Under the pieces are notes generated by a model that saw only the letters and a program-made list of their open reading frames with translations, searched no databases and was not told where the DNA came from. DNA of 64,000 nt from positions 8,618,001 to 8,682,000 of the forward strand of contig CM102285.1 of assembly GCA_046563655.1 (NCBI GenBank), written 5' to 3'. Made by a program: the position numbers and the translations under genes. Origin of the DNA: Yuukianura sp. NJ FZ-2021 (lineage: Eukaryota). The stretch's first letter is position 1; each line of letters starts with the position of its first letter. Positions 3,547 to 38,971 of the stretch are shown here, piece by piece.

Positions 3547-3803
3547 CGAAATCGTTCGAAAACAAGGTTATTCAACTGTTTTACTTTTCCAAATGATGGT
3601 GACAATTACGAACAACAAGTTTATTTTTTAGTGAATTTTCAATTTGCATTAGTTAGTAAGCTTTAGACGTCGAGTAACTCTTACGTGAAATGTGTAAATG
3701 TAAATGAGCAAACCATCACCACTTTTTTCCTTTTCCCATTTTGCCATCTGGTACTACCCAGACAAAAAAAAATGACCAAAAGATTGTGATCCTAGGGTTG
3801 ACC

Positions 3804-4199
3804 TCTGTCAAGTTATGCGGGGTCAAAGTCGCCATTTTGGAATCTTGCCCCCTACGTATTTCCGACACCGCTCAACCGATTTGGGTCATCTCGGGGTCAA
3901 AGGCTAATTTAGTTGTAAATGTGTTTTTAAGCAAAAGCAGGTAAATTCTCATGGGCCCTTAATAAGGACCATCTTAAAAAACTGAATTTTCGCCCTTGTG
4001 TTTTAGTGCTTTCAAATCCGGTATGCGTTCCTTGCTGTCGCCCTTAAGGGTACCCTACCCTCCAGAGGCGTGAGGGTGCCCATTGTCAGAGCGTTAAGCG
4101 CCACCAGCTATGTACATACATAGTTAAAAATGTGAACATACATACTACCATATTACGTGATTTTGTCGTCGTAAAGTTAAATATCCGGTGTCTCTTAAC
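3804..4199. repeat. Dispersed non-coding repeat (MITE/Helitron-like family), copy 1
   Basis: Aligns by eye to 14010-14308 (same strand) and 33542-33836 (inverted). Shared core ttttcgcccttgtgttttagt...cccttaagggtaccct. Confidence 0.85.
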
Positions 4200-4666
4200 G
4201 TCAGTCAAAACCTGACCTGACAAAATTAGTCGGAACTTATTACAAGCTAAAGTCAAGTAAGCATTGAAAGACGCGGTTACAAGTAATTAATTTTTAGATA
4301 AGGTGGAGAATTTTTATTCACAGAAGCTTTTACAACTTAAAAACGTAAAATGTAATGTAAAATGTAATTAAAAATGTAAAGTAACATTGTTACTGTAAAG
4401 TCAAAATGAATGGAAGGGAAGTTCGCGACGAGTATTAAAAAATACTTGAAAGAGCTTTTCCGAAATTTCCACAACAAAAAGCAAAGAACCAGGAAATGTC
4501 GAAACCGAAGAAATTTACAAGTTCTAAGTTCAATTTAACGACCACCAAACGTTACTACAGTGCAGTACGCAGTACCAACCAATCATATCTTTGCGTCTTA
4601 CACTAAAGGATCAATCAGAGAAATTGTTGGGGTAAAAGTGATGTGGAAAACAATTAGCAAAATATA

Positions 4667-5072
4667 TGTTAGAAAGTCGACTGAAAACTAACCGTTAACA
4701 GCCACCATTTGAAATCCTGCAAACTGACTAGCCGGAGCAAACTGACTAACTGACGAAATGACTGACAGAAGGATTTTCAAACTACCAAACTGTAGTTAAT
4801 TGAAATTGAGTTACTTTAATTAATCCAAAAACCGTTTAATTCCTCACAAATCTTACAGATACTTAACTTCTTACTTGTTACTTCTTAACATGTTTCAACT
4901 TGTTCTCTGACTAAAACTTAGCACCTCGAGGTGGGAAACCTTGAGCGCAGGCGCAGAGCCTATTTTAAATTTAGAAATCGGAAAGAGAAAATCGTGCTGA
5001 AGCTTTCTCACTTCTTAAACTAACATTTCTAATTTTGAAAACACTAAAAGGAAGACGCTCAATTATCCTACA
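4667..5072 (-). repeat. 3' LTR of the BEL/Pao element
   Basis: Direct repeat of 7837-8230 with scattered substitutions and one indel of about 11-12 bp near 4931. Confidence 0.93.
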
Positions 5073-7836
5073 TTTCTTCCCACTTTCTGAGTTAAACAAT
5101 TACTGAAGAAACGCTAAACCATTATTTCGAAACTCTATTTGAAAATGAATTGAGAAAGTTAAATTCCTAAAATATAAACTTAACTTTAAACTCAAAATGA
5201 AAATGAAATTAACCATATCAAACTAAACTAAACTCTAACTTTGAAATGGAAATGAAAACGAAAAACTTAAATCTAATTGAAGGTGAATCGGTTCGGCTTC
5301 CTCACTTGTCTTCCACTTCGGGTTACAACGGGATCCGATTCCACCTCCATGTCCAGTTCTTCAACTGATGACTCCTGTTCCTCGAGTTTTCTTGGCTTTG
5401 TGATGATCTTCTTGACACCACTCTTCGGATCTGTACCAGTGACGATTTCTGTGACGTCATCTCGGATCTCCAGTGGAATCAAACGCTGTATCGGGCGGAG
5501 TTGACTGCCATTCTTAGTCCGAATTCTGGCCACACGAACTTTTCCGTCTTTTCCTGGAAGGAGTTCCACAATTTTCGCCATAGGCCAAAAGATCCGCTTC
5601 TGATTATCGACTTCGACAAGTACCACTTCTCCGACTTTGAATTCCCGGATCTTCTGTTCTTTTCCTCTCTGGATCAATTGTCCCAAATATTCGGAGCTAA
5701 AACGGTCTCTGATTTCCTGGTGGAGCTGTTGTATTGTCTTTTGCTCCTTCAGAGTTGACACGATGACAACGCTCGACTCTGGTACTTCACTGTAGGGAAT
5801 ATTGTGCATGAACATACCTAGCAGGCGTTAATGGCACAAAATCGTCCGGATCTTCCGTCACGTATGTCAATGGGCGATGATTAATGGCAGCTTCAACTTC
5901 ACAAAGTGCTGTCTCCAGTTGCCCCAATGACAATTTGCCAAATCCGAGTGACTTCCTGAGCAGATCCTTGGTACTTCTGACCAAACGTTTTTGGACACAA
6001 TTTCTTTTTGTTGTTTTCACACAAATGAAAATCATCAATTCAATAAATATGAAGTCTCTGATGATTAGGATGGATCATTGTTTGTTGAGAGTGGTTTTAT
6101 CCTTAGGAGAAATGACAAGTTAATTCTATTTTCAGACTTTAACTTCAAAGTACTATAAAGATTAAGTGCATGAACTTCTTAAACCTTTTCGGTTCTTGGA
6201 GTTTGACCAACTGGCACAAAATCGCTTCTTCGGTGTCGAAGTCCTTTTGTTGACCACAGAAGTATGTCTAGAAGTTTGCTTAAGAACTTTAGAAGATTAA
6301 TGGAAGGTTCCTGAAAGAAGAGAACGCGGAAGGAACGTGCTGTCTCCAGGGTCCCCCTCGCTCATAAACATTAACGCGTCGTTAAGATCCGAGTGACTCG
6401 CCTAAACTTTATGTGTGAAAAGGTCAAGTTTTTGGACCTCTACAATTTAACACTTTCTTCTCTTCTAACTTCATCTTCTGGGCTTTGAAACAATTGTTGG
6501 AGTCGTGGGGCTTCTCACACACACTTTTCCTGCCTTCCCACCTCCACTTGTTCCACTGAAAAGTCCAGCTGAAGGAAAATCTTCATCTTTCTGTTCTTGT
6601 CGATTTTGATGTTTTCGTTTCTCCGGAATGAAGCCGAATCCAGACCGGGCTAACTTCCGCTGTTCCTCATTCTCAATTTCAATCTTCAGAAACGACATCA
6701 GAAAATCCAGTTCCGATCTTCTCTTGTTCCGTCCTTCCCAAAATTCGGACTCCGCTGCCAGGCAAGAAGAACGTCTTCCGGCTGACTGGATTCTACCATT
6801 GGAAACAAAAATTCGACCATTTGTTCTATACTGACACCAAGTGATTCCAAGGAACGTAGTGAAGCCTCCAACTTGTCAAAAAGTGTAGCGAGTGGCGTCT
6901 TCTCCTTTGAGCGATTATCCAAAATCAACTTAATCAGCTCACGGACGTACACTTGCTTGAGCAACTTCTCCTTGCCGAATCGTTCCTTCAGTGCAGCAAG
7001 GGCTTTCGGGTAATTTTCAGAAGACTGGGATATCGCTTCACTTCTTCTTCTGCCCGTGAGCCCAACACCATGGACTGCACCAGGTAACTGAATTTGTCTG
7101 AATTGTGGAGCTCCTCATCTTCATCAATCTTCTTAAACTGGGCCCATCAACCCAACCAGTCCGTTAACTCTCCAGAAAATTTCATCAAATCGATTTTCGG
7201 TAGTTTGACACGACGACCGTAGGCATTGGATGACTCGCTTCTCGTTTGCCTGACTGGGCGTTGACTCTTCCACAGATTCTGGAGTTTCGTTTCTGCCTTC
7301 ACTTTGACTAGAGTTGCCTTCTTCCGAAACTCCCGACTTTCCGTCCGTTCTGAGGAAAGGACACCCCCATCGACATCTTCCATATCCAGGATGAACTCTT
7401 TTATCTTGTCATCCAGTTCTGACTATGTTTGCAGAGAAGAATCCAGTAACTGGAGTGACGTCACGATCTCATCTTGGTTCACTGGATCTTTCTGCAATTC
7501 ATCTTTGAGTGACTTGACCAAATCCTGTACGCCACTCCTCTCAGCAGCTCTTTCCCGTTTAGCTCTCTCCATAGCTCAAAAAGGTAAACAAACAGAAACA
7601 AAAGATCAGGATTCTGCTTTACGCAATTGATCTGAAACGATTTTCACCTCAGTAAGTGCCGTTCCGGTAGGCACGGACCACTATGTATTCGATCGTGGCA
7701 GTATCGGCTCCACACCCGGACGATACTCCAACTGACTCCTGTTGTCCAAAAGTATCCAACGAACGACGTCTGGAACTCTCCTTGTCAGGTTACTGCTCCA
7801 CCACTCCAGTAAATTTGAGGCCAAGGGTCACCAAAA

Positions 7837-8230
7837 TGTTAGAAAGTCGACCGAAAACTAACCGTTGACAGCCACCTTCTGAAATCCTGCAAACTGACTG
7901 GCCGGAGCAAACTGGCTAACTGACGAAATGACTGACAGAAGGACTTTGAAACTACCAAACTGTAGTTAATTGAAATTGAGTTACTTTAATTAATCCAAAA
8001 ACCGATTAATTCCTCACAAATCGTACAGATACTTAACTTCTTACTTGTTACTCTTAACATGTTCCAACTTGTTCTCTCACTAGAACTTAACACCTCGAGG
8101 AAGCGCAGGCGCAGAGCCTATTTTAAATTTAGAAATCGGAAAGAGAAAATCGCGCGTAAGCTTTCTCACTTCTTAAACTAACATTTCTAATTTTGAAAAC
8201 ACTAAAAGGAAGACGCCAAATTATCCTACA
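7837..8230 (-). repeat. 5' LTR of the BEL/Pao element
   Basis: Direct repeat of 4667-5072; PBS adjacent. Confidence 0.93.
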
Positions 8231-8389
8231 ATATATATGCAAATCCTACCCAAATTCAGCGTTGAGCAGAATCTGGATCAAACGTGTGGCAAGAAATTTT
8301 CCCCTTCAAATTTAGTTTAAGAAGTAATTGCTTGATGGCATTAATTCAGAAGTTTCGTCTCGTGATATTGGAATATGTAAAGCCGTAAA

Positions 8390-10140
8390 GAGCAGGATGA
8401 AATGTCGTCGTGACCCTTATTTCGAATGTGCCTTTCCGGTATCTCTTAAAAATACTGTTCTGAAAAATGATTGTTACGATTTCTGGGTCATAGAATGACC
8501 TAATGGCATATTTTAGTTCATTCCATTTTGTGTCGGCGTTATCAGGGGTCATCCCCTTAGAATTTTGGTCTGTGACCAACGCCACCATTCCAGTGCTTCG
8601 CCTTCCAACAATTGATGGAAGTGCAGGATCAGCGAATTGCTGTCCACAGCACCTGATGCCAATAATGCATCACACCTCAGGGTCAACAGGTCAACATTCG
8701 TCCTACCGTCAAACGGAGGAATCGAACGGACCACCGCCTTAAGGTCAAAACCCTTGGTCGACGCCGAAGCGGACCCGGTGGGTTTTGTATCGGTAACTGC
8801 ATTCATATTGGAAGCGGAGGTCGATTTTTCTTTCATACTCCCCTGAAAGTTGTTCAATTTTGATGGAAGAAAATTGGGATTTTTTTCAAATTTTTTGGAG
8901 AAGCCTATACCCATCCCCATTGTACTGTTCAGTGAGAAACCCGTGTATATGAAAAGTTTATATGTAAAACGTAATATCTAATTTTCACATGTGATTCTTA
9001 CAATATACAACTGGAGAAAACGGGGTTTACAATACAAAATGAGGGAAATTAATGAGTATCCCATAATCCTGGTATTAAACCACGCATTACTAGAATCTCC
9101 AACTGTTAATTTAACCTACTGTTTTCACAAAATGATTAACAAGTTAACACCAGCAATTGACGGCAATATTTCCACGTAGATCCAGTAAGATTTGAATAGT
9201 ATTGCAATTACAATTTCTTTTTTTTTTTACCATGGTTTCACATAAATTATGGATTGTTGACAATTGTAAAACTCGGGTTGTAAGAAAAATGGTACTATTA
9301 CAATTTTGTTTTACAATCATCACCATTCGAAAAGTATTCCTTCCAAAATAATTGCCAAATTGTCCAGGAAAAGCTTGACCACTTCCGAAAAAGTTGTCAA
9401 AGCAACTCGCAGCACCAAGCGAATGTCGACTATATTAGACGAACAGCTCAAAAATCTGAGAGATGAACATGGAGAGATGAAGGACTTCATCGGAGATGTA
9501 CTTGACACTTTTATTGCTCGTGGTTTCTGAAAGCATCACTGACTGTCGTGGAGAACTCAGTGACCTTGACCTCAACAGGTCAATATCACTTTCACGTTCA
9601 CTTGCACTTTCACTGTTTCACCGACAAACAACTCAAATACTACTAAAAATAAGGATTCTTGTCTTACCTTTTTGACGTTCAGATGTCGAGGTCAAACTTT
9701 CCTGGAATTGAAAGGTTGTGATGTGTAACGCCTCGACGTCAAGGTCAGCAAGTGTGTAACGCCTCGACGTCACGGTCAGCCACTGTGTAGCGTCTCGCAC
9801 CGCTACTCCTCTAGAAATATGGCCGCAGCCACGCCCTCAGACTCTCAATCACTGATCAGCAGATCCCACAACTGCCCAAAGACCAATAACTCACCAAAAC
9901 ACTAACAACAACGATCAGTGAATAAATGTATGAAAATATATTTATTCACTGGAATAAATCAACAACTGAAAAACACTGATGACTACATCATATATACAAC
10001 TGATCTCGTCCTCCTCTAACAACCAAAACCAAACTGCCCTCTCCTATATATAAACTCCTCTCCTCGCTCGCTCCTCGCCTCAACTCAAATCTACCGCGAG
10101 CCACATCATCATCTCAACCTGCCCCTAACCTAACACTACA
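8390..10140 (-). mobile_element. Truncated Ty3/Gypsy element: probable 5' LTR (9786-10140), leader and frameshifted gag (about 8390-8920)
   Basis: Gag segment DLKAVVRSIPPFDGRTNVDL...FHQLLEGEALEWW is clearly homologous to the gag at 26256-26921. LTR-like block bounded by TGTAG...CTACA with TATA and AATAAA; degenerate PBS-like TGGCTGACCGTGAC inside it. Confidence 0.7.
9722..9785. repeat. Two-copy 31-bp tandem repeat abutting the LTR
   Basis: tgtgtaacgcctcgacgtca(a/c)ggtcagc occurs twice. Confidence 0.85.
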
Positions 10141-12776: not shown

Positions 12777-12789
12777 TAATTTCAGTCCT

Positions 12790-13080
12790 CTCGCCTACAG
12801 ACGTTCGGGGGGTTCTGATCTTTCCGTAGAGAGTTGACATTTTCGGACTCCAAGTACTTCGTCACACATGTTGCGTTGTGACACGAAGCTAGGTCGGGCC
12901 AAAACAGTACATCTTCTAAATTATTTTGCTTTTTGATGAAACGGATGAGTATTTCCTGTGAAATTTGCACATACACCCTGATTCATCTTGTCTTCGCAAA
13001 GAAACGGTTTCGAAGTATTGCCCTTGGAATTGATTGCTTGCCAAATCATCCCTTCTTTGCAAATTTGGATTTTCCGATGA
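12790..13080 (-). pseudogene. IS630/Tc1/mariner transposase fragment (DD37E-like)
   Basis: MIWQAINSKGNTSKPF...VLFWPDLASCH...NPPNV catalytic-region motifs; frameshifted and truncated. Confidence 0.8.
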
Positions 13081-14009
13081 ACTTATTTTTGAGTTAAATT
13101 CTTTGATTTTTTGTCTTTTGTAATTTGTTTTTTGTTAATTTGAGTTATTTGTATGTGAAACTTCCGCAGTTAACGTTAATCCCATCAATGGATTATTTGT
13201 TCTTTGTAAGTAAACGTTAGGTCATTGATATTTGTTCCCATCAAGGGATTTGTTACTTGGATTGTGCCTGTACAAGGCCATTTTAGAAGAAAAAGTTTGC
13301 TGCAGAGACCATCAAGGTCGTACCATCAAAGTAGAAACATAAAGGCTGAGAAGATTTGTTTATGTGCTGGAGCTTATGTCCCGTTATGTTTGTAAGGTGA
13401 ATGGACGAAAAGAAAAGATAATTTGGTATGCAAATCCGCAGATTACGGTTTCTTGCTTTTTGAGTTACTTTTTTTTGTCCGTTATTCTTCTCTCTCTCTT
13501 TTTTTTTTTGCTTTATGGCTGACTCATCCCGTCGACATTTTGAAAATTTTAGAAAAAACGTTACGTTTTTAGGCTTTTTTTTAGAAAAATCGGGCATGAC
13601 CCGTGTAGGAATTTACGTTATAATGACCTGAAACCACTTACTCAACAGAAAACAGCAATAGCAAGCACAAGAAGTTGCAGTTTTGTTTGTTAGGGGGTAC
13701 CTGTTTTTTGAAGCATTGGTTTTTCGGTGTTTTCCCGTTTTCGGACCCTCGGATCCAGACTCGTCTTGAGTCACTAGTCGCCACGTGCAGCGGGAACGGA
13801 TGCGGAGTCTCCCTCGTGGCTGCTCGGTGGAGCCGAGGTCAGCCGGATGAGCAAGGTGAAATGAGTGAGCGGAAGACACAGGAAGAGCTGTTGCTCTGAA
13901 TACGGCTGTATTCAGACTGACTCCCTGACTCATACATCTCTATGTAATGTGTACATAACCTATCATATCCTATGGGGTAGCTGGGGTTTCGGTCATCCTC
14001 CGGCACACA

Positions 14010-14308
14010 GTGTCAAAAGAAAGGGCTCATTTAGTTCTAAATGCGTTTTTAAGCAATGCTCATGGGCCCTTAACAAGGCCTTCTTAAAAAACTCAATTTT
14101 CGCCCTTGTGTTTTAGTACTTTCCAATCCGTTACGAGTTCCTTGTTGTAGCCCTTAAGGGTACCCTCTAGAGGCGTGAGATGTCCCATTGTCAGGGCGTA
14201 TCGCCACCAGATATGTATTGTATTATAATAGGTAAAAATGTGAAGATTGCGTACTACCGTATTACGTGATTTGGTCGTCGTAAAGTTAAATACCCGGTGT
14301 CTCTTAAC
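14010..14308. repeat. Dispersed repeat copy 2, part of a local segmental duplication
   Basis: Aligns with about 3893-4199. Confidence 0.85.
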
Positions 14309-14356
14309 TTTTTCGTTTCTGAATCTGAATTCCATTTTTTTTCAATTTTCGTAATT

Positions 14357-15106
14357 CTAGAAGTTAGAGTTGTTCAATTTCGAACATACCGTCAACGGCT
14401 GCTTGTTTACATTGCTAGGGTTTGACTTTGGAGCAGCGGTAGCGTTGAAACTCAAAGAAGTTGGAGCGACCTGGGATTGAATAACCATCGTGAACAGTTC
14501 TTGTCCTTCGATTGGATCTGACTGTGTCGAGACCTCCTGATGGTTCTTCGACTGTGACACCACTGCGCTTTGCAGCTCTTTGGCTTCCATGGCTTCGATT
14601 TTATCTTTCAACGTTGTGTTTTCCAGCATAAATTCATCAATCTCTTGAACCATGCTCTCCTGTACTGCTTCCAACACTTCCAATTCTTTCTTGAGTTGGT
14701 ATTCTCTGGCTCGACTTTTCTTGACTTCTTTAGTCGCCTTCTTCAATTCATCTTCCAGCGCTCGGAAGTCGGCCTGACCTGGAAGGGACTGATTCTTCGT
14801 CTCAAGTAGTGTCTTCCCATGAAGGACCTTTGATGCGTTCTGGGAATCACCATAAAGAGCCGCTCGCATACACTTGTGGATCATCATATGCGTAATCGAG
14901 TTCGACAGACGATGCAGGCGATCACACTCACTGCAAATGGCAAAACCAGTCTCTTGTTTATCCACAAGTAGAATTTTGTAAACGATCCATCCAAGTGCCT
15001 TGTTCGAACGACCGTGCGTTACTGGCTCCCTACTCAAACGATGACTGTTTTCAGCCACCAATCGCAGCAGGTAGTCCCATTCAAACGGAGACTTCGCGTT
15101 AGGCAT
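14357..15106 (-). CDS. BED-type zinc finger plus coiled-coil protein (249 aa), probably hAT-derived
   Basis: Intact ORF with W...GFAICSECDRL...THMMIHKC (aromatic, Cx2C, Hx3H/C), a heptad-rich E/K segment and an S/T/Q tail. A ttgcag acceptor lies at about 15138 and the frame is open up to it. No transposase catalytic domain. Confidence 0.65.
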   Translation of the reverse strand: MPNAKSPFEWDYLLRLVAENSHRLSREPVTHGRSNKALGWIVYKILLVDKQETGFAICSECDRLHRLSNSITHMMIHKCMRAALYGDSQNASKVLHGKTLLETKNQSLPGQADFRALEDELKKATKEVKKSRAREYQLKKELEVLEAVQESMVQEIDEFMLENTTLKDKIEAMEAKELQSAVVSQSKNHQEVSTQSDPIEGQELFTMVIQSQVAPTSLSFNATAAPKSNPSNVNKQPLTVCSKLNNSNF

Positions 15107-15157
15107 ATTATCAGTAATCCCCAGAGTTTAGTTGTACCTGCAACAGAACATGATGGG

Positions 15158-15808: not shown

Positions 15809-15829
15809 CGCTACTATGAACTTTTAGCA

Positions 15830-16511: not shown

Positions 16512-16568
16512 ATTACGAACAACACTAAATTACATCTTATTGCTCCCACCATCGAGCCCCACTACAAA

Positions 16569-20696: not shown

Positions 20697-23530
20697 TCAA
20701 ATATATTTCGCTAGTTGCTTCTTAATTAGGTCATTTTTTAGTAAACGTTTAAATTGCATCACATTTTTTGCTTCCCTAATTTCCTGATCAAGCTCATTCC
20801 AGAATTGTATTGACCTTGCTTGGAAGGTTACGCTTCCGAACTTTCCCCTAGTGTTATAATTACCGAAGCTAATTCTAGTATTATTGCATGCATTTGACGT
20901 TGGATACCTATGGATTTCATTAGCTTTTATATAATAATTCTTAAATACCTCTACAATATTTACATTCATTAATTTGTACATAAATACCAATACTTTATAC
21001 CTAAATAATGACTCCGGGTATAACCAATTTAATTTTTCTGTCATGTCTTCAGAAACTTGGTCAAATTTTATTTTATCTAGTGCCATCCTAGCCATTGTTC
21101 TCAAAACTTTTTCCACTTTCTTCATATTTTTTATTGTTGTTTCACCCCATACCACAATCATATACTGGATTACCGACAAAACCAAAGCTTCCAGTACAAT
21201 TCGTCTGGACTGTAGTGGTAAGTATTCTTTGTACTTGTAAATACATCCCATTACACAATAGCATTTTTTTACAACACAATTTACTTGATCATCCCACTTT
21301 AAGTTTGAGTTTACTATGAGACCCAGCATTTTCACACTCTCACTCTGTCCCACGGACGTTGCATTAAGCAAAATTTTCTTCTTAATTGAGCCAGATTTAT
21401 TACCAAAAAATAAAAGCTTTGTTTTTTCTTCATTAATCATCAATTTGTTCATTTTTATCCACTCCATTAGTCTGAACATATCCTGGTTTATTTTTTCCAC
21501 CATACCATCAATTTCTTTTTTGTCACATACAAATATGGTACTCGTGTCCAACACAAAAATAATAAGTTTCCCATTATGTATCACCAGTTTAAGATCATTT
21601 ATGAAATACGTGAAGAAAATCGGTCCTAGGACACTTCCTTGAATTAATCCCGTGGGATTTTTAATTAATCTTGACTTTTTATTTAATAACTCCACAAACT
21701 GAAATCGATTACCAAAGTAATCACGAAGCCAAAAATCAGAAATCCGAAATTGTTCATTCAGTTTTTTCAAAAGTATATCCCTGTGAACGCTTGGGAAAGC
21801 ATTTCGAAGGCCAATATTGACCATCGCACATACTTTACCCAAACTCACCTCTTTTTTTATATAATCAATTCCATAAATCATAGCATGTTCAGTAGAATGT
21901 TTTTTCCTACAACCAAACTGATAATTACTCAGAAAATTGTTTGAATTTATGTGCTCCATCACTCTTTTCACATATATTTTTTCAAGAAAAATCATTATAA
22001 AGTATGAAATTCCAATAGGTCTTAGATCTTTTGGCTTTTTTGGCTGCTTTATTTTTGGTATTGGGATAATTTTTGTCACTTTAAGTTGGGGCGGTATATT
22101 GCCTTTTTTAAAAATGATTTCACGAAAATTTCTAAAAAATTCTACAAAATTATGAAAGTTCATTAAAACGTTAAACATTTTCTTACTGACACCCAGTATT
22201 TCCAATTCTGAATTTTTTTTCTTCATATTTTTCCAAGTCTTTTTAATATCTTCAGTTGAGATTTCTTTAACAAAAAACAATTCATCAGACTTTATACATT
22301 TTGTTATACTTTCCAGTGTCGTATGGTACAACATCAACTTCAAAAGAATTTTTCACATAAAACTCATTTAATTCATCGGGATCAAAAACATTTTCATTAT
22401 CGCCTTTAAATTTGTTCTCAACATCAAATTGAAATTCAGTTTTTAAAACATCCCAAACGTTATTCGTTTTAAGCTTCCTTAAGACTTTCTCCGAAATGTG
22501 TTTTTTTAATTTTAGTTTAATCCCCTTCTTTATTTTCTTTAATTCCAACTTTAAGCAATCAACTTTCGTTGCACAGAACTTCTTTCTCAAGTCATTCGCC
22601 TTTTTATACAAAGACTCCATTTCAGGATTAAGGTCAACATTGCGATTTAAACTTTCTTTAACTTTTTTTTTCCTTTTCGCCGCAACTTTATTAAAAATGT
22701 CTTTAATTTGTTTTGTGAAATTGTTAAACAACATTTCACTTGATTCTTCGTTTTCAAAGATAAGGACTTCTTTTTCCATTATTAGATTCAGCTCAATTAA
22801 ATCACTTTCCGAAAAATTTCTTTTCTCTTCAAATTTCATTTTCTGTTTGACCTTTTTATATTTGTACTCAATACTACTAAGAACGTGATCAGAAATTCCA
22901 AATTCATTTACTTGAGCATCATTTACTGTCTCATCATTAGTTACAACATAGTCTAACAACGCCAAACTTCTCGTTTGCTCTTTCACTAATTGACGTAAAG
23001 ATAATTTTTCAAAAAGTCTTTTCATTTGCTTCGTGTATTTATCCGTCTTGAAAAAATCCCGATTTAGATCTCCCAAGACAAAAAATACTCGATTTGAGCG
23101 AATCGAATTTGAGAAATCAGCTCTAAATTGTACACACCAGCACAATTCAATTTTTTGTCTGGAATGTAGACAACACAAACAACAATAGTTTTGAGAAATT
23201 TGAGTTGGACTTTTTTGCACATATATTCTAACGAGCAAGGTAATTTAAACTCCTTTTCATCTATGTAAAACTCGTTCACTTTTAAGGTTTTCTTGCATAA
23301 AATTCCAACTCCCCCTCCTCTTTTTTGTATTCTATCTTTTCTGTAGAAATGAAAACCATTTGGAACAATGGCTCCTGCACCTTCTTTCAACCAAGTTTCC
23401 GACAGACATAAAATATCTACATGTTCTAAATTTATCATATTTTCTAATTGTTTTACCTTTTTATCATAGGAACATACATTCTGGTGAGCTAATTTTATTT
23501 TTTGACTTACATTTTTTGTGTTAGTGTTAA
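20697..23530 (-). pseudogene. LINE ORF2 (endonuclease plus reverse transcriptase), frameshifted
   Basis: Endonuclease motifs LAHQNV, DILCLSETWL, RGGGVGI, VLGDLN, LLDYV and ISDH; RT motifs DLRPIG, QFGCRKKHST and QGSVLGPIFF. Catalytic F/YADD is degraded to FVLD. Frameshifts near 23100-23230 and 22330. Confidence 0.92.
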
Positions 23531-24034
23531 ATACTGTTACGGTGAATTATTCCTCGGACGAATAACCGCACCGGAAAACGCTCGAATGTCCTCCCAGAAC
23601 CTGGAGACTCCTAAAGAAATGACCTCTGACCTCTTGACCTCGTTCGGACCGCGTTTGGTCTTAAAGTCAAATCTTTATTGAAATGTAAAAGACAGCTTTT
23701 ACAAGAAAGTACTGAGCTCACTGAGAGCTAATCAATGAATGATTTCTGAATTCCAGAACAACTCTGGAGCAAACATTTACAGTTAGCGTGTGTGGGTGGA
23801 ACGGCAATTCCAACCCAACACACAAATCAAATACCTAACGGTAAACGCAAATTTGGATTAGCCTAAATTCCTACGACTAGGGGGAGACAACAAAACACAC
23901 AAACAGCTTGGCCTTGAGGGGTCAAAATACTACATTTTACATTTCTAGACTTTGAAAATGTAACTAAAAACTGTGCAAAACCTTACTACATAACAATACT
24001 CCGGGGGATCTTCAAGTCACGTCCACGTGACTGC

Positions 24035-24649
24035 TCAGTTGTTGTTGTTGTGGACGGCAGCAACGACGTTCACCCGGGGATTGGGGATGTACTGGGGATT
24101 CGGTGGGGCTCCAGGAGGGGGACGAAGACGAAGCGGTCGCTGGACAAGGTAATCTGCTGCTACATGACCTTGGGCCCTGCATGTATAACAAATGCGACGT
24201 CGTTCAGCTTGTCCGTTTCGTTGTCCGCGAGCATTCCCGCGTCCACGAGCATTCCCACATCCACGAGCATTCCCACGTCCACGAGCATTCCCACGTCGAG
24301 CGAGCCCGCCTCCTCTCTCCCTCACTATGATGACGAGTTCTCGCCCGTTCCGAAATTCTCGCCATTGCGGCATTCCGCGTACTGGGGGTGGCCGGACGCG
24401 CATGAGCGCAACTTGACGTTGACCTCCACGACGTCACTGAGCATTTCCATTTGCTGGGGCGAAGACCGGAACTGGAATAACCGGAGCTGGAATAACCGGA
24501 ACTGGAATAACCGGAGCTGGAAGAACGGGAGGCACATTTTCCACTTCTTCCTCCTCGTCGTCTGTCAACACAATCTCAGGAATTCCTTCCGCCGGCTGGT
24601 CAACGGCCATCGGCTCATCCTCTCCGAGCAATTCCCTCTCTCGATCCAT
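24035..24649 (-). pseudogene. Accessory third ORF of the Gypsy element: acidic/Pro-rich, RG-repeat and zinc-knuckle protein with one in-frame stop
   Basis: Track ORFs 24434-24721 and 24035-24403 are in the same frame, split by one TGA (24434-24436). It reads MDRERE...DDEEEE, PVIP repeats, RGRGNA repeats and CYTCRAQGHVAADY. A branch point and acceptor lie just before the ATG. Confidence 0.7.
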
Positions 24650-24887
24650 GTTTTCTGAAACATGACAGAAAGTTAGCAAAACTTTCAAGCACAAAGTTAA
24701 AAAAACAATGATCTTAGACACAAAGTCTAAACAAACAAACTTTGAAAATTCATTTCAAAACTCAAAATGAAAACTAATTTTTAAAAAAAAAACACTAAGT
24801 TTTAACGAAAACTTCCACATAGGAAATTCCTAATGATTAAAATTCACTAAGAATTTACAAAAAGTCAAACCTACCAGCCATGTTCCT

Positions 24888-26255
24888 TCACTCAGAAGAA
24901 CAACGGTACCTTATTGGTTTCCGAATGGTTCGGGCTGACCTTCGCACTGGTACTGCAGTTTGCTGGACTTCCTTCTTCTTGGCCTTCTTCACCACAACTG
25001 ACCGACTTGGCTGCTGGACATGGACCATTTTACCAATGTCCCCTTCGTCAGTGGCAGAATCTGAGTCAACGTGGACACTAAGTCTAACGGGACTTTTCAT
25101 TGATTCTGAGGAATTAACATTCCTCTTCTTTCCAGACTGAGTCTGATTCGGAAGTTCTAATTCTGATAGCGACGAGCTAGATGAACTAATCTTTCTAGTG
25201 CGCTTAATTTTCTTAACTTTTGAAGAAACAAATTCTTCATCTGAACTCGAATTGAATTCACTACGAAAGTGAAACAAATCCCTAACATGCACAATAATCG
25301 GCTTCCTACTACTACCAATCAATTTGATTTGGTAATTAACTGCCGATGTTTTCTTAGTCACCACATAGGGACCTTTGGTTTGTGCAAGTAAGCATTGGGA
25401 CAAACCTTTCTTACGTACTGGCACTGAGCGCAGTACCTTATCTCCAATGTTAAAATTAACATTTTCCTTATTCCTGTCAAAACGAACTTTTGACTTTTCA
25501 TGAACTCTCATAGAGTTCAAGGCAGCGCGAAAGCGAGCAGCTTCCAGCTCTCTAGGGAACTCATCCCTACGATCATTTTCAGAGCAACTAGGCAAATCCA
25601 TGTCAAATGGAAGTCTAGCCTCTCGCCCATGCACGAAGTAAAATGGCGAATATTCTGTTGTCTCTTGCCTACTCACATTATAGGCAAATGTTGCCGATGC
25701 TAAACAATCATCCCAGTTGTCCTGACTAGGATTAGCATATTTGGCAATTATTTTCTTCAAGGTCTGATTACATCGCTCGGTCATTCCGTTAGACTGAGGA
25801 TGAAAAGGAGACGTGAACTTGACCTTGAACTTCAGCTCCTCTTTTGCCTGTTTCACTAAGTCGGCAATGAACTGACGACCTTGGTCACAAACAAATTCTT
25901 TCGGCAACGAATGCCTAAGAATTACCTTATCTTTTATATTAGCTACAACGCACTCAGCGGTAGCGTGTGTGACTGCTACGGACTCAAAGTAGTGGGAGAA
26001 GTGATCAATAAATATGAGCGCATATTTATTCTCCCTGTCCTTGGACTTTACAAATGGGCCAATAAAGTCAATGCCCACTCTCTCAAATGGGGTCGTGACC
26101 TCGTCAAAGTCTTGCATAGCCCTCTGCGCACTCTATGTATCTGACAAACTTTGCATCCTAGAACAAATCTACGGACGTCACGATACATTCCGTTCCAGAA
26201 AAAGCGAGATTTCACACAGCTCCATGTTCTCGTCACGCCAAAATGTCCACTTAGG
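24888..26255 (-). CDS. Gypsy integrase (zinc-binding domain separated by a frameshift near 26120)
   Basis: GHFGVTRT...FWNGMYRDV...CKVCQ; PFERVGIDFIGP, DQGRQF and PFHPQSNGMTERCN (D,D,E triad); GPY module. Confidence 0.92.
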
Positions 26256-26921
26256 TCACCTGCGTGTACCGTCTGTTTTTTTACCGGTCTGTTTTACCGG
26301 ATTTTTGTTACAGACCCACTTAGGTTTGTCAGGCTTATCCGGCTTGTCCATTTTTCGCAACTTCTGCAAAAATTCAGTCGGATTTTTCGGTTCTGCGCAG
26401 TACATAATGTTGCGCAGCGTGTCGGGAAGCCCTTTGGTCAACTTTTCGACCTGCTTCTTGTCCGACGTCCGATTGGGATCCAGCATCACAAAGATACTCA
26501 ACTTTTTGCTGACGTACTCCCCAGCGGAGCTACAATCAACAAACTTAGTGGCACTGGCAGCCTTTTTCGCTTCCTTACGAACCGACTCAGGTTCGTAAAA
26601 CGATTTTAATTGTTGTTTCAACAATTCCCACTTCTGATCCTTGTTAGCGTCACTAAGATCGCTAATGTACTTGATCTGCGCAAATTTCCACCAATCCTGT
26701 GCTTCACCTTCCAGAAGCAGATGAAAATTTAGTAACAATAACCTGGAGTCAACTTGCTTTGTCTCCAGCGCAACATCACATCTCACACAAAAAAGGTCTA
26801 CATTCGATTTCCCATCGAATTTAGGAATTGACCTAATGACACTTTTCACATCGCTGGACATGGCAGTCGCAACGTTAGTGCCTTTACTCGAACTGTTACC
26901 AGTTGCCATCACAAAGTGCAA
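26256..26921 (-). CDS. Gypsy gag (capsid-like), C-terminally truncated
   Basis: First ORF after the PBS; IPKFDG...LLEGEAQDWW...WELLKQQL...GLP retrotransposon gag pattern. No zinc knuckle in the retained part. Confidence 0.85.
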   Translation of the reverse strand: MHFVMATGNSSSKGTNVATAMSSDVKSVIRSIPKFDGKSNVDLFCVRCDVALETKQVDSRLLLLNFHLLLEGEAQDWWKFAQIKYISDLSDANKDQKWELLKQQLKSFYEPESVRKEAKKAASATKFVDCSSAGEYVSKKLSIFVMLDPNRTSDKKQVEKLTKGLPDTLRNIMYCAEPKNPTEFLQKLRKMDKPDKPDKPKWVCNKNPVKQTGKKTDGTRR

Positions 26922-27494
26922 CTTCCCTATTGGTACTCAACTGAAATTTTAGCACAATAACCTTACGTGAGTTCCTGAACGTATGCCCCCAATCACGAAG
27001 TTTGAAGACTAGTTCCGTTGCTCGTTCCACCAAATGTTACGGTGCGTTATTCCTCGGACGAATAACCGCACCGGAAAACGCTCGAATCTCCTCCCAGAAC
27101 CTGGAGACTCCTAAAGAAATGACCTCTGACCTCTTGACCTCGTTCGGACCGCGTTTGGTCTTAAAGTCAAATCTTTATTGAAATGTAAAAGACAGCTTTT
27201 ACAAGAAAGTACTGAGCTCACTGAGAGCTAATCAATGAATGATTTCTGAATTCCAGAACAACTCTGGAGCAAACATTTACAGTTAGCGTGTGTGGGTGGA
27301 ACGGCAATTCCAACCCAACACACAAATCAAATACCTAACGGTAAACGCTAATTGGATTAGCCTAAATTCCTACGACTAGGGGGAGACAACAAAACACACA
27401 AACAACTTGGCCTTGAGGGGTCAAAATACTACATTTTACATTTCTAGACTTTGAAAATGTAACTAAAAACTGTGCAAAACCTTACTACATAACA

Positions 27495-28408
27495 ATACGT
27501 TGAGATGATCCAGTGGCTTGCACGCGACTCCCTTCTCCTTCTTCCAACTCCATTGTTGCAGGTTGTTGACCGATTCGATTTGTTGTAAAATTTGCCGGAC
27601 GAATTAATGGGGATGAACTTCCTGTTGTAAATCTTCGCCTGGTAGACGCCATTTGCACCAAAATTGAATGACGTGGTTGCCACTCTTTCAGTGCTCCATT
27701 TGATCCCAATACGAAAAAGACTCCATTAACGACAATCCTATCTCCCATGACCTTGACGACCTTCCCCAGTTGTCTCGCTTTGGCCGCTTCCGCTCTAAGT
27801 TTCTTCCTTTTTGTTTGAATTGAGGCTGGCAGATCTTCATTGATGTAGATTTTCATTTTCTTTTTATGTAACATCGATCCTCTGCTCAGTACAAGATTTC
27901 GGTGATTTTCTGTGCAAAATCTAACTTTGACGACTCTCGGGCGATTTGGTAGTGGCTTTCCAAGTCGGATACATGTGTCTACTGGTACTGTACCCACTTC
28001 TAGTTCCAATGGTCCTTCAAAAAGTCGGTAGATTTCACTTCGCAGATCCGATTCAGTTTCATTCATTTTTTCACTCAAGCCGAAGATGACAAGATTTTGT
28101 TTTCTGGCTAAGATTTCCACACTTTCAAGCGTTTCTTCCACTTTGGATATAATGTCATCAATCCCCTCCTGATGGTTTTCAATTTTAGACACTCTTTCAG
28201 ACATGCACTTTAACTCACTTTTTACTTCTTCAACACTAGCTTGGATTCCACCAATGTCATTTCTAATTCCTTCAATTTCGTGTTTGATGTCACTCAAATT
28301 TGCTTTCATTAAGCGTTCAATTCCCTTCATGGAAACGGGTTCTTCCTCCACTTCCTCTTCTGCCTTCCTCTTCTTGTTTCCATTTTTGGTCATTTTCAAT
28401 ACAAACAA
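27495..28408 (-). CDS. LINE ORF1 (coiled coil plus RRM-type L1-like ORF1)
   Basis: Heptad repeats followed by RKQNLVIFGLSE, RLGK...RPRVVKVRF and IYINEDLP. The natural stop is reconstituted as CGT ATT TAA when the Gypsy insert is removed. Confidence 0.88.
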
Positions 28409-28524
28409 CCAGTCGTTGACAACACACTCTTTACTGTTTTAAAGAGTTTTTTTTCTCCTTATTTTTAGAGAAAAAGGTGCACAACCAAGGTCAGTGACAG
28501 ACAAAAGGGAACTGATCATGATCT

Positions 28525-28920
28525 TTTTTTTATCATGTATGAATTTTTAAAACAATACGTGTCAAAGGTCAAGTGAAACACACGGTTAGGTTAGGTTATT
28601 GCTCGTGTAGTTTGCTCGTGTAACCATTTTCTGCAAAATTCAAAACCGAAAATTTTCCCGATAAAGAAGGCGATGCTCACCAATGAATATACTGGATTTT
28701 TTTTATCATGTGTTAATTTTAAAAAATGTTTGTCAGTGTCAAGTGAAACACAAGATTGGAGCAGCTTCGCTTTAGCATTAATTGGTCATTTCCGGAGTTT
28801 TGTCATCCCATTGCTTCAAGGCAAAATTAGTCATTTCCTAATGAACACTTTCTTAACTATTTTCAGCAAAATTTAAAAACAAAAAACTTTTCCCGCCAAA
28901 TTTGAAAAAAAAATGAAAAA
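28525..28920. repeat. Degenerate ~170-230 bp tandem units; a related unit lies at about 20320-20380
   Basis: tttttttatcatgt...gtcaagtgaaacaca occurs twice; ttttc(a/t)gcaaaatt...tttcccg occurs at about 28626, 28860 and 20324. Confidence 0.7.
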
Positions 28921-29569
28921 ATGCAATGCGTACCAAAAACTTTGCTTAAAAATTACAAAGATTTAACATATGCCATTTCGTTTGACACAGATGAGATTGT
29001 TATGAAGTAACCATTTCCAAAAATCTAGCAAGTAATTCATGCAAATAATCTTTTGTCTCTTTTGTTGCAAATTAGTTAGTTTTGCAAAGACTCATGTTAC
29101 AATCAGTTCTACATTGTATGTCTAACATAGAGTTCATTGCCTTATTAGTCTTTTGTTCAAACTCAAGTCTAAATTTAGAATTGCATATTGTTAACTCGGC
29201 GCGTGTCGAGTCCTTTAGAAATTGCTCGGCCGTGACCTCGATTCTCACTTCAATTCCAAATCTTAAAGTGAACAGAACTCTGCCGGTTTGCAACCGGCAC
29301 GAGTTCAACAACCGTCAAACTTACTTTCTGAATAAAAGTCTATTCAACTCCGCAATTCGCGAGTCAAGTTAGAAATAGGCCTTATTTCAGAACAAGATTA
29401 TAATCTATCCAAATGTCAACTGCACTTTCGTTACTTCGGCACATCCGGTTTACCAACGGTTTATTTTCATTACAACTTGTGAAAGTGTCCAGTTAGAAAA
29501 CGTATTGATCGAGTTAGCACACGAAATAACAATGTAGTTTTTACCAGTAATACAAGAATTGACACTGTC

Positions 29570-30805
29570 AATTCTGTAAGCAACTTTAATCAGTAGACAC
29601 TTCTTAAAACAATTAACAATTGTAGCAGATGCAATTTTGTTCCACGCCTCACAAATCATTTCCACACCGTCAGCAAGGCTAACTTGACTTAAATTTTTGC
29701 CACTATCTAAAGAATTTACGATTTTCTGAGAATATTTAAGCAGTTAATTATACCTGAGTCAAGTGACTGAGTCTTACTTGTAGAATTTGGTGGCAAGAAG
29801 AGCAGTTCAATATTAGAAAATTCTTCTTCCAAAACATGTAAAACATGTCTAAAACATTGCAAATAGAATTTTAAATTTTAATGTTAATTGTAAAAAAGGA
29901 GATACTCAGCCCAATTTTATGTTCTTTAGAAAAACTTACCATTTAAGTCATATGTCTTGGTGGGAACTTTTTCCTAAAAAAAAAGTGCAGACTCGTCGCA
30001 GTTCCAAATTTCGTCTGGCGAGAATTTTGGCAATTTTTTTTCTAAAACAGAATTCCTCCATTCATTTGTTTTGGCGACATCCTCGGAGTTCTCCTCTCCG
30101 CAAATCCTTTTCCTTGTGTAGTTGATTCTGGCAAAAAAAAAACGACGAAGCCACCCTCTAGAAAATGTTTTCGGATCAGACGGGAACAGAAGCTGAGCCT
30201 TGTTTTGGATAAAAACGCCTGAAACTGGAATTCCTCGTTTTCTTAATCCTTCGATCCATTCTAACAACAGTTCATCTTGCGCCAGTACTTTCTCAGAAAC
30301 AATTTTTTTCCGGATCTAAAAAAAACAAAGCAACACAGAATCAAAAAACAACTTGCCAGAGACCTTGGCCTAGTTACAATTCAATTACAACTTAATTCAT
30401 TTTATTTACCTTTGCGTTCCCATTGAAGCTTGTAATTTGGTTTTCTTTTTGGCTTATTTTGCTCCCTGTTGATTTTGTAATTGAATATCGAGCACAGATG
30501 TCTTTTCATGTAGTATTCGTTAATTCCGATAGGATATTACGTTTAGTTTCTAAAGTAATAAAGCACTTCGAATTTGGCATTGTTAAAAAGTAGCCGAACA
30601 AATATTAATTAACTCTAACTTCATTAATAATAATAAGGAACAATGGGACTAAACATGGTTCAGAGCAAGTCAACAAAAGATAAATGTAAACTTTTGGAGT
30701 TGTTGACGAGTTCTCTTCCCGCCATCCCCCCACTTGTTGGAAATACGCGGTATAAGAGGAAGGAGAAAAAGGGATAGCGTGGTTTCCACAAGAGGTCCTA
30801 TACTG
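29570..30805 (-). mobile_element. Degenerate pogo/Tigger (CENP-B-like) transposon
   Basis: WIEGLRKRGIPVSG...FSRGWLRRF (CENP-B HTH), IWNCDESALF, LFLPPNSTSKTQSLDSGI and EAWNKIASATIVNCFKK. TA|CAGTATAGGACCTC terminus at 30805; apparent GT-AG intron at about 30316-30409. Confidence 0.85.
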
Positions 30806-31028
30806 TATTTGTACATATCGTTTTGTTAATCTGTAGTGGGAATACAGGATTGAGAAAATTGTTCTTTGCCTGAGTGATTACAGCTAACAATTACCAATGT
30901 TTGCCTTTACGGAGGTACACGATACAGCAACCAGAAAGTCAAAGAATCAGGATTTAAGAATTACGGGCGTCTGACTCAATACCAAAGAAACTTCAATTCG
31001 GACATACATCAGGTATCAGGTTTACGGG

Positions 31029-32112
31029 TTAGCGTTGAATACGGGTTTGGTAAAATTGTACAACAGTTCGCTTTTCTTGACTACAAGAAAACCCAAAAAC
31101 TCTACCTTCAGCATTTAAGGGCTCAGTATCCTGTTTCGGCTCTTCTTGTAAATTCTCAAACGTGTTTGAGAAGTAATGAAGTTTCGCAGTACTTTGGTTG
31201 CTTGTCACCATCATCATTTGAATTTTTAGTTGTAATAGTGCAGTCAATTCATCCCTCCGTTTGTTTTCCTCTGCCAATCGTTCCGTCACTTTGACCTTAA
31301 CAAGCTCATCTTCCGCAGACAAAACGACGTCTTTTGGTTCCGGTTGCATTGGGTGACGGCGGCTCCTCTATTCAGAACAGCTAAATTGATTAAAAATCGT
31401 TGACTGACTTCGTTTACCGGCTGGTTAACTGCTCAGCTTGTACTTCGTTTTAAGTAGTTGAAATCGGTCCCGAATGGTTCTAACAGTTAATCTTCGTCTT
31501 AAATTTATCGCCCGCAGGTCGGTGAGCACTCCGTTCCATTTGTCCTTTCCTAGTTGGAATGTGTTTTGTTAGGGGTTTGTTGGGTTTTGTTAACCTAACC
31601 TAATGCAACTTTTTAACAGTGGAATATCGTCCTGAATCGTGAAAGCAAACTTCCTTGCCTAAACCAAAGATTTTTAATGTTAAGATAGGCTTGTTACTTA
31701 GTTAACGGTTTTGCGGAACCCTACCTTCCAATTTGAAGGATCGTCTCCAATTTGACCTGCCCGCTTGACCTTTGATATGCTGGACTGCTAAAAAAATAAC
31801 TTAATTGCTCAATGTTTTTGACAAAAAGTTAATCACAAACAAAAACAAATCTGTCTGGCTTTACCAAAAAAAGATAGACAGAAAGTGACTTTCAAATTGC
31901 ACCTCTTACAGATACAAAACATACTTCTAAACGGATTCACACTTTGAACCGAGTGTGATTTGGAATTTAAGATACGTTTACGTCTCCCGTATCTCTTACG
32001 TATCTTTTCGATTTTTACGTTGACATAGTAGATACGTTTACGTATCTCGAGCTCTTCATGTATCTTTTTCGAAAAGATACGTGTTACGTTTACGTTTTCA
32101 AGATACGTGGGC
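31029..32112 (-). mobile_element. Harbinger/PIF-like remnant: decayed Myb/SANT-like ORF plus palindromic subterminal repeats
   Basis: KFAFTIQDDIPLLK...KWNGV...TVRTIRDRFQLL then a coiled-coil tail (31029-31660); clustered AGATACGT/ACGTATCT inverted motifs at 31970-32110. Confidence 0.5.
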
Positions 32113-33541
32113 TGCAGATAACTCTCTAAAACGGCTATTTAACCTTACACTTTTAGAAATGAATGACGCAAAACTTAGTATAAGAATTAAAGTGGCGAAA
32201 GTCACCACAAGTCACCAAAAGTCGGAATTTCCAGCGAGTAGGCCTAATAAAATTCTGGAAGTTAGTCCGCTGAACTGTTATATGATGACGACCGTGACGA
32301 CGAAGCCAAATCTCCAATGCACGTGAGCAGCTGAATGTTATTCGCATGCAAGTTCACCGGCAAAGGAAATTTCCCGTGTGCGTTGTGTTGAAGAGCGCAT
32401 GGAAATCTTGGACAAACGATAAATGCATCTCTCATCATTCCTTGAAGTTCAGCATGGACCTACGAGGGCGTTTTCTCGTTCAGGTGCCAAATTCCCCGTC
32501 AACGTCTTGAACTGGACATCTGCGTTGCGAATTGTTTTTGCTGTAACGTTTTCATTTATATGCCGCATCCTCATCCCAGACCACGTGCTTGGATACACAT
32601 TCCGTTTTGTCGAGATGCACGGTAGTGCATTTGTTAGCCTAATCCTGACTTTTTCCAAAAGTCCTTCCTAGAAAGTTAGAAGGTGTGATGGTGTTTTTAA
32701 AAAAACAATCTTTCGGAATTTTTGAAATTTCCATAAAAAAGGAAAATGCAGAAGGTTGAGGCAGAAACGTTGATCTTTCAGTGACCTTGACCTGACTAAT
32801 GCTCTCTTCCTAAACAAATGACTCAAAGACTGAAAATGACTTGAGAGCTGCAACAGAGAAGATGTTAGCAGGTTGAGGTCTTTAATGAGACTACTTAGGT
32901 ATATCTATGTACAGAGGCTTTTAAAATGACTGTCTCAAGGTCATAGCGATAGCGCTCAGCTTAGGTAACCACCTTTTGGGAGAAAACTCAACTCCTCTTT
33001 TCCCTCCAGGAATTGCGCGGTCTTTTGCTAAACAATGACAGATCCTAAACTTGACAAGTAAAGCAAAGTTTCCAAAAATCAATCACTTTTGAACTACCTT
33101 GTCATTGTTTAAACATTAAATTACTATTAATTACGCCTGAGATTGAACCTAATCGAAGAGCCCAATTGATTCTGAGGGACTGCAATCATCTTAGCTCCGC
33201 TGTTATGGATAACTTTGGCATTAAAAAATACAAGTAATTTCAGTATGAATGAATGGTATAAATTTTAATTTGCTCAAAATAGCCGCAGAGGGCGGCCATT
33301 TTCAGCACTTTAAGAAATAAAAACTTCTAAAAGTAAAGTTTTTACTGAAAAATAAAACTGTTTAGTTAAAATTTTAATATTTCTCCCTTTTGTTATTCCT
33401 TCTTTTTGTGCAAAACTCGCGGGAGAGTAGTAGAGTTTCACAAAACCCAGAAGCGTCACACTCAAATTTCTTGTGACAATAGGCAGTCATTTTAAACACT
33501 TGTGCATTTCCTAGGTTTTGAATCTTGTTTCCCGTGTGTGC

Positions 33542-33836
33542 CTTAACGTCCTGACAGTGGGCCGTTCACGCCCTTGGAGGGTACCCTTAAGGGCTAGAGC
33601 AGGAAACACTTATACCCGAGTTTACAGTACTAAAACACAAGAGCGAAAATTGACTTTTTAATATGCCCTTATTATGGACCTATGAGCCTTTACTTGCTTT
33701 TGTTTAAAAGTATATTTAGAGCTAAGTGAGCCCTTTCTTTTGACACCGAGATGATCTAAGTCGGTTGAGCCGTTTCGGAAATACGTAGGGGGCAAGATTT
33801 CCAAAATGGCGACTTTGCCCCGCATATCTCGACAGA
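33542..33836. repeat. Dispersed repeat copy 3 (inverted relative to 3804-4098)
   Basis: Reverse complement aligns with 3804-4098. Confidence 0.85.
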
Positions 33837-33949
33837 CGTAAACGAAAGGGTTACGATTTTTTGCACACGTTCTTTGTCTTTCTTTCGTTCGTTTCTTATC
33901 TTGTTCTTTCATAATACAATTACTACGTAAAGTTTCATGCATTTTAAAA

Positions 33950-34125
33950 CGGTTTCATGTGATTTGGTCAGAAAGTGAAAAGATCAAAAGTGAAATGGTC
34001 AGAAAAAAAGGTCAGAAAACGAATGAACTTAACCAAACCTAACCTGAGATCTTTTGAATTCTGACCTTCTCACTTCTGATCATTTCACTTCTGACCAAAG
34101 ATTTCTGACCATTTCACCTGCTACG
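33950..34125. mobile_element. Foldback MITE with 8-bp flanking duplication
   Basis: tggtcagaa repeats on the left, ttctgacca repeats on the right, central aacctaacct; TTTTAAAA at 33942-33949 and 34126-34133. Confidence 0.7.
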
Positions 34126-38920: not shown

Positions 38921-38952
38921 CCTTGTTCAATTTTTTTGCGCGTACTAGTTCC

Positions 38953-38971
38953 TCGACCTTGACCTTTGACC
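38953..38971 (-). promoter_or_regulatory. AGGTCA direct-repeat motif (nuclear-receptor-like) upstream of paralog 1; equivalents at about 39717-39736 and 40545-40561
   Basis: AAGGTCAAGGTCG is present about 25-35 bp upstream of each of the three ATGs while surrounding sequence diverges. Confidence 0.5.

Follow-up and report, generated by a model that had tools for sequence, protein, structure and literature searches.

A 64,000-nucleotide window of the genome of Yuukianura sp. NJ FZ-2021 (GenBank assembly GCA_046563655.1, contig CM102285.1, positions 8,618,001 to 8,682,000 of the forward strand; positions below are counted from the first letter of this window) contains, immediately downstream of a FARS2-type gene, a block of about 27–30 kb that is filled with remnants of transposable elements (TEs). 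Among the TE coding remnants whose orientation was supported by our searches, eight were on the minus strand and one was on the plus strand. A first-pass annotation of the window had placed all 11 of 11 orientable remnants on the minus strand, with a chance probability of about 0.001, and had proposed that the block was a uni-strand PIWI-interacting RNA (piRNA) cluster resembling Drosophila flamenco. The strand skew is real, but it is weaker than first claimed, with a chance probability that varies with the treatment from about 0.002 to 0.04. The explanation that we favor, at a little below even probability, is that the block is an ordinary TE nest in the intergenic DNA between the FARS2-type gene and a dipeptidase-like gene, and that its skew arose by chance.

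The strand tally was based on Pfam comparisons of open reading frames (ORFs). All 494 stop-to-stop ORFs of at least 50 amino acids in the window were compared with Pfam at E ≤ 0.01, with both strands treated alike, and all 385 ORFs of at least 38 amino acids between 3503 and 34465 (204 on the plus strand and 181 on the minus strand) were compared at E ≤ 0.1–0.3. Doubtful items were examined by homology searches and by tblastn searches in which TE ORFs taken from the window were queried against the window itself, and repeats were mapped by self-blastn of the window. The eight independent minus-strand remnants identified in this way were two BEL elements, a Gypsy gag fragment, a Tc1/IS630 fragment, a zf-BED fragment, a long interspersed nuclear element (LINE), a young Gypsy-type element, and a Tigger remnant, corresponding to eight of the 12 items named in the first-pass annotation (BEL at 4667, Gypsy at 8390, Tc1 at 12790, the item at 15830, BEL at 17496, and the LINE, the Gypsy element, and Tigger). 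The recognizable TE coding remnants between the two genes were all located within 4.7–31.3 kb, with FARS2 as the left bound, bearing out the transposon pile-up that had been described downstream of this gene. The tally counts orientable remnants, and stretches at about 9–12.8, 16.2–16.9, 28.5–29.4, and 31.3–33.5 kb are unclassified; these may contain noncoding or very decayed TEs in either orientation.

The composition of the block is that of a TE nest. At least seven TE superfamilies were represented (BEL, Gypsy, LINE, Tc1, BED, Tigger, and Harbinger), and two insertions were found within other insertions: the first of the BEL elements (BEL#1) is inserted into one copy of a repeat that we call R1 (copy A), and the young Gypsy-type element is inserted into the LINE, where its 4-bp target-site duplication (TSD), ATAC, is intact. 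The insertions also differed widely in age, as the long terminal repeats (LTRs) were 98.7% identical to each other in the young Gypsy-type element and 92.4% identical in BEL#1 according to self-blastn, while the R1 copies were 76–81% identical over the longer matches and 88% identical over one 152-nt stretch. Together, the nesting, the mixture of superfamilies, and the spread of ages identify the block as a long-lived zone of TE accumulation. With several unrelated families and insertions inside older insertions, it fits the definition of a TE nest. According to the explanation that we favor, TEs of many classes would have inserted here, some of them within others, and would then have decayed over a long period. 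The skew would be a sampling outcome, with no selective force having set the orientation, and the block would do nothing as a unit. A single animal genome would be expected to have many runs of this length in its TE-dense stretches, and the present region was noticed because of its skew.

Several observations weigh against a chance origin of the skew. The minus-strand remnants follow one another without interruption, and the two exceptions, a Harbinger fragment at 30.9 kb and the third copy of R1 (copy C) at 33.5 kb, are situated at the distal end of the block, beyond 30.8 kb. When the skew was expressed as coding length, 97.8% was on the minus strand (15,314 bp vs 339 bp on the plus strand). 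For the 8:1 tally, a two-sided binomial test gave p = 0.039, and the probability of a longest run of eight in nine was 0.012. The run extended to 9–11 remnants once a weak gag tail was included along with the R1 copies, with corresponding values of 0.021 and 0.006 (a run of nine in 10) for a 9:1 tally and 0.022 and 0.002 (a run of 11 in 13) for an 11:2 tally. The run tests (p = 0.002–0.012) were thus more significant than the binomial tests because the exceptions sit at one end; all of these p values describe a single region that was singled out for its skew, and they carry no correction for that choice. In addition, the DNA transposons are oriented like the retroelements, and we know of no strong orientation selection acting on DNA transposons in introns. 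Finally, our explanation assumes how often such runs would occur by chance in this genome.

Of the LTR retrotransposons, BEL#1, a BEL/Pao element (4666–8230, minus strand), is 3.56 kb long and internally deleted, with LTRs at 4666–5072 and 7836–8230 and a TSD of about 5 bp. Pfam matches were obtained to DUF5641 at 5276–5827(−) (E = 6e-20) and to DUF1759 at 6701–7114(−) (E = 2.6e-9), and a second copy of R1 (copy B) keeps the empty site of the BEL#1 insertion. The second BEL/Pao element, BEL#2 (17260–18740, minus strand), is truncated and consists of gag and the start of pol, with a DUF1759 match (E = 2e-38) in ORF 17772–18740(−); no LTR pair was found for this element. Since tblastn gave no cross-match between them, BEL#2 belongs to a family other than that of BEL#1.

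The young Gypsy-type element (23535–27498, minus strand) has LTRs at 23535–23999 and 27035–27498 and contains rve (E = 1.5e-11), Integrase_H2C2 (E = 2e-16), and Retrotrans_gag (E = 8e-5) domains. Its gag directly abuts the integrase, and no protease, reverse transcriptase (RT), or RNase H domain was detected in it, suggesting a deletion derivative that was no longer autonomous and yet transposed recently. The Retrotrans_gag domain lies in ORF 26259–26936(−), to which ORF 8552–8977(−) showed 51% identity over 73 amino acids in tblastn (E = 2e-18), identifying an old Gypsy-type gag fragment at 8349–8977 on the minus strand. This fragment, near 8390, had no direct Pfam match, and a PDB sequence search with the gag-like ORF returned nothing meaningful. 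The "Gypsy 3′ end" that had been placed at 18721 corresponds to a minus-strand ORF (19175–19609), and its evidence of identity amounts to a weak zinc knuckle (zf-CCHC_4, E = 0.06) whose motif is visible in the translation; we list it as a possible retroelement gag tail. A doubtful solo LTR suggested at 12370 had no second copy in the window according to self-blastn. No env domain was found by Pfam among the 385 ORFs scanned between 3503 and 34465.

The LINE (20700–28438, minus strand) comprises an ORF1-like region at 27488–28438, an endonuclease at 23067–23546, and an RT at 20700–22352, with Pfam matches to Exo_endo_phos (E = 1e-6) and RVT_1 (E = 3e-22) and a coiled coil in the ORF1-like ORF. 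It is split by the young Gypsy-type element, and open frames of the LINE abut both edges of the insertion. The LINE together with the nested element is bounded by 66-nt direct repeats (20321–20386 and 28857–28921) that are 88% identical; both their length and their divergence exceed what is usual for a TSD.

Fragments of DNA transposons and a zf-BED fragment were also oriented. The Tc1/IS630-type DDE transposase fragment (12809–13073, minus strand) represents only the C-terminal third and carries in-frame stops. An earlier homology search with a 66-amino-acid Tc1-like ORF had found no match, and a PDB sequence search had returned nothing meaningful. When 12785–13102(−) was searched with phmmer with its stops written as X, 166 proteins were matched at E ≤ 0.001 (best, 3e-10), and many of the best 150 of these 166 were about 350 amino acids long, with the query aligning at approximately residues 180–280. 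Among 10 matches scanned for domains, DDE_3 was present in two and HTH_Tnp_IS630 in one, and tblastn mapped the fragment in the window only to 12809–13073 on the minus strand. The item at 15830 had been named a hAT element, of which the minus-strand zf-BED domain was confirmed (PF02892, E = 8e-6, at 15876–16151) and the hAT assignment was not, as Pfam detected no hAT transposase core or domain in it; the fragment is possibly the N terminus of a hAT element. The Tigger/pogo-type remnant (29453–30315, minus strand) matched HTH_Tnp_Tc5 (E = 7e-13) and DDE_1 (E = 5e-5 and 0.006).

The first plus-strand exception is the C-terminal fragment of a PIF/Harbinger (DDE_Tnp_4) transposase at 30893–31231, contained in ORF 30878–31291(+). 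It matched DDE_Tnp_4 in Pfam (E = 0.034) and was 53% identical to a DDE_Tnp_4 protein (E = 3e-21), with tblastn placing it on the plus strand at these positions. The source name of the best Harbinger match, together with a weak Atlas match, gave a tentative lead to an arthropod. The Harbinger-like ORF had previously been assigned to the minus strand; apparently, an overlapping minus-strand ORF (31032–31367) that gives only noise matches had been taken for it.

The presence of so many kinds of element in one orientation bears on a mechanistic explanation of the skew, in which the local direction of replication or the chromatin state would favor one orientation at the moment of integration. Some retroelements may favor one orientation with respect to replication when they integrate, and the skew itself is the one observation here that speaks for such a bias. 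Since the enzymes involved are unrelated in their chemistry (LTR integrases, a LINE endonuclease, and DDE transposases of three superfamilies), a bias shared by all of them is unlikely, and we regard this explanation as very improbable.

R1 is represented by three copies. Copy A (3777–4669 and 8230–8381, minus strand) starts 230 bp past the FARS2 stop codon and is split by BEL#1; its strand was assigned via its homology to copy B (14010–15807, minus strand). Self-blastn matched 3899–4199 to 14021–14308 (81%), 4215–4669 to 15169–15667 (78%), and 8230–8381 to 15659–15807 (88%), and copy A is without an 860-bp segment of copy B that bears an ORF. This ORF (14360–15127(−), 256 amino acids), which had been described as a BED ORF at 14357, is genuine, with a zinc-finger-like motif (C-x2-C...H-x3-H) followed by a coiled coil, and no family could be assigned to it, as Pfam gave coiled-coil noise only and the best Atlas score, 0.86, was below the usable level. 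The strand of R1 therefore depends on one ORF of unassigned family in copy B. Copy C (33542–33863, plus strand) has the opposite orientation to copies A and B and constitutes the second exception, which was absent from the first-pass annotation. It was revealed by self-blastn matches of 3777–4098 to 33863–33542 (78.6%) and of 14010–14199 to 33746–33546 (75.9%).

Inverted copies of R1 are thus present at both ends of the block, separated by 29.4 kb and sharing 78.6% identity across about 320 nt. Because a third, direct copy lies in the middle of the block, the three copies are most likely old insertions of one family rather than the ends of a giant element.

We then considered the skew in relation to the flanking genes, both of which are on the plus strand. 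The FARS2-type gene (1749–3546) has short introns between its ORFs, and its stop codon ends at 3546. Pfam detected tRNA-synt_2d in ORFs 1749–2651, 2703–2942, and 2896–3105 and FDX-ACB in ORFs 3124–3309 and 3379–3543, with the end of the FDX-ACB profile reached and the domain complete; this pair of domains is the architecture of mitochondrial phenylalanyl-tRNA synthetase. On the other side, an exon of the dipeptidase-like gene was identified by a Pfam match to Peptidase_M19 at 56998–57246. Between 34,466 and 56,500, none of the 150 ORFs of at least 56 amino acids matched a TE family in Pfam at E ≤ 0.1, and no ORF of at least 50 amino acids did so at E ≤ 0.01. Within the TE block itself, no tRNA gene and no Rfam family were found, and tandem repeats are minor.

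Relative to both flanking genes, the skew runs antisense, and it could reflect selection within a plus-strand transcription unit, unrelated to piRNAs. Such a unit might be a long 3′ untranslated region (UTR) or read-through transcript of FARS2, a long first intron of the dipeptidase-like gene, or a long noncoding RNA. TEs in the sense orientation would bring terminators and splice sites and would be removed, and antisense copies would stay. The antisense bias of intronic endogenous retroviruses and other TEs is established (PMC1794541, PMC3517506) and has served to predict transcribed regions and genes (PMC1391917). We consider this explanation rather unlikely for the present block. FARS2 ends cleanly at 3546 with a complete FDX-ACB profile, and no exon-like Pfam match connects the block with the downstream gene. 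Moreover, the antisense bias in introns is usually about 2:1 for retroelements, and the 8:1 ratio observed here, with DNA transposons included, exceeds this value.

Canonical poly(A) hexamers (A[AT]TAAA) were counted across the block, yielding 35 on the plus strand vs 54 on the minus strand, with much of the excess on the minus strand located within the LINE. Poly(A) signals are therefore not purged from the plus strand. The first plus-strand hexamer past the FARS2 stop codon is at 4367, 820 nt downstream and within the first repeat.

These features also bear on the original proposal of a uni-strand piRNA cluster. In this case, a plus-strand RNA polymerase II transcript, initiated at the FARS2 3′ end, close to it, or at a promoter of its own, would extend through the block and be processed into piRNAs antisense to BEL, Gypsy, LINE, and DNA transposons. 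Selection would have retained antisense insertions and eliminated sense insertions near its 5′ end. The unbroken run of eight minus-strand remnants in a block that begins 230 bp past the FARS2 stop is consistent with such an arrangement, as are the position of the first plus-strand poly(A) hexamer inside the first repeat and the presence of a recently inserted element with 98.7% identical LTRs. Both sense exceptions are distal, which is where unistrand clusters reportedly tolerate sense insertions, according to passages of PMC10643416. Antisense retroviral insertions in the 3′ UTRs of host genes reportedly suffice for piRNA production (PMC13226689), and FlaHMM, as outlined in parts of PMC11400887, offers a precedent for predicting clusters from strand-specific TE coverage alone. 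Conversely, the flam-syntenic clusters that passages of PMC10643416 describe (227–1,085 kb) are about 10 times larger than the block, the skew is not specific to Gypsy elements, env was not found among the ORFs scanned, 35 canonical poly(A) hexamers are present on the plus strand, the statistics are modest and post hoc, and FlaHMM has a false-positive rate of about 1.1% by its own report. We therefore judge a uni-strand piRNA cluster to be unlikely. Also unlikely, in our estimation, is the more specific version in which the block would be a compact, mixed-class, uni-strand piRNA source at the FARS2 3′ end of a non-model animal that is probably an arthropod, fed by read-through from a housekeeping gene, tolerating sense insertions at its distal end only, and forming a small counterpart of flamenco. 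The weights that we attach to the four explanations add up to slightly less than certainty, and an ordinary TE nest whose skew arose by chance remains the one we favor.

One item of the minus-strand series proved not to be a TE. The WD40 pseudogene of the first-pass annotation is indeed on the minus strand and pseudogene-like (16859–17321), and it matched Pfam weakly (E = 0.0016–0.005, below the cut-offs) and only generic WD40 proteins in homology searches (E = 2.5e-5 and 1.3e-4). It consists of two to three repeats with a frameshift and is isolated between the zf-BED fragment and BEL#2, with no other exons of a WD40 gene found in the window; it resembles a gene fragment or pseudogene. Weak Utp21-type matches at 13286–13612 and 17028–17342 had suggested a minus-strand WDR36/UTP21-like gene extending across the block. 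This candidate was ruled out, as the homologues were generic WD40 proteins and tblastn found WD40 similarity only at 16859–17321.

Two features were noted beyond the block. ORF 35626–36684(+), which encodes 353 amino acids, lies in a locally GC-richer stretch directly beyond the TE block; it had no Pfam match and a best Atlas score of 0.76, and it could have arisen by chance or represent an unrecognized gene. At 38539–40438, approximately three diverged tandem copies (62–90% identical) of a unit of roughly 670–850 bp were found, and no coding signal was found in them.

If the block were a piRNA source, it would provide one compact, mixed-class, gene-anchored example of a kind of locus already documented in animals that include flies and mosquitoes; it would aid comparative work on the origins of clusters and would open no new question. 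The analysis also carries a caution, as the by-eye tally of orientations had over-counted agreement: one element had been assigned to the opposite strand, and three of the items were weak. When a region is selected post hoc, its strand bias is insufficient on its own to identify a piRNA cluster.

In comparison with flamenco and flam-like clusters, as portrayed in passages of PMC10643416, the block is similar in its predominance of one orientation, its gene-adjacent start, its distal sense exceptions, and its young LTR element. Its elements are antisense at 8:1 if transcription is assumed to run on the plus strand. It differs in size, with 27–30 kb here vs 227–1,085 kb for the flam-syntenic clusters, and in the elements that carry the bias: the same passages describe Gypsy-family (endogenous retrovirus) elements alone as strand-biased in flam-like clusters, whereas Gypsy-type elements account for two of the eight minus-strand remnants here (three of nine with the weak gag tail), and BEL, LINE, Tc1, BED, and Tigger share their orientation, with no env-bearing element found. 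Flamenco-like clusters are further characterized by abundant 23–32-nt, 1U-biased piRNAs from one strand, by a long single-stranded RNA polymerase II precursor with a discrete promoter, and by a position conserved among related species. The block cannot be classed among the flamenco-like clusters, and these differences lower the claim of a flam-like cluster more than that of a uni-strand piRNA source.

The piRNAs derived from antisense TEs in 3′ UTRs, described in PMC13226689, offer a parallel in one respect. Because R1 starts 230 bp past the FARS2 stop codon and no plus-strand hexamer occurs before 4367, FARS2 transcripts could carry antisense TE sequence. The system described there involves single insertions in an annotated 3′ UTR, whereas here read-through would have to extend over 27 kb past 35 hexamers, which is far more to ask. 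The antisense bias of TEs within transcription units (PMC1794541 and PMC3517506) likewise resembles the present skew in being antisense to the genes concerned, here to both flanking genes. Ratios in introns are usually lower than the one observed here, which in addition includes DNA transposons. TE nests share with the block their dense and decayed elements of mixed classes, their nested insertions, and their wide spread of ages; the block differs from them in being unusually one-sided, at 8:1 by remnants and 97.8% of the orientable base pairs. As best explained, the block is thus a TE nest, an already known kind of genomic feature.

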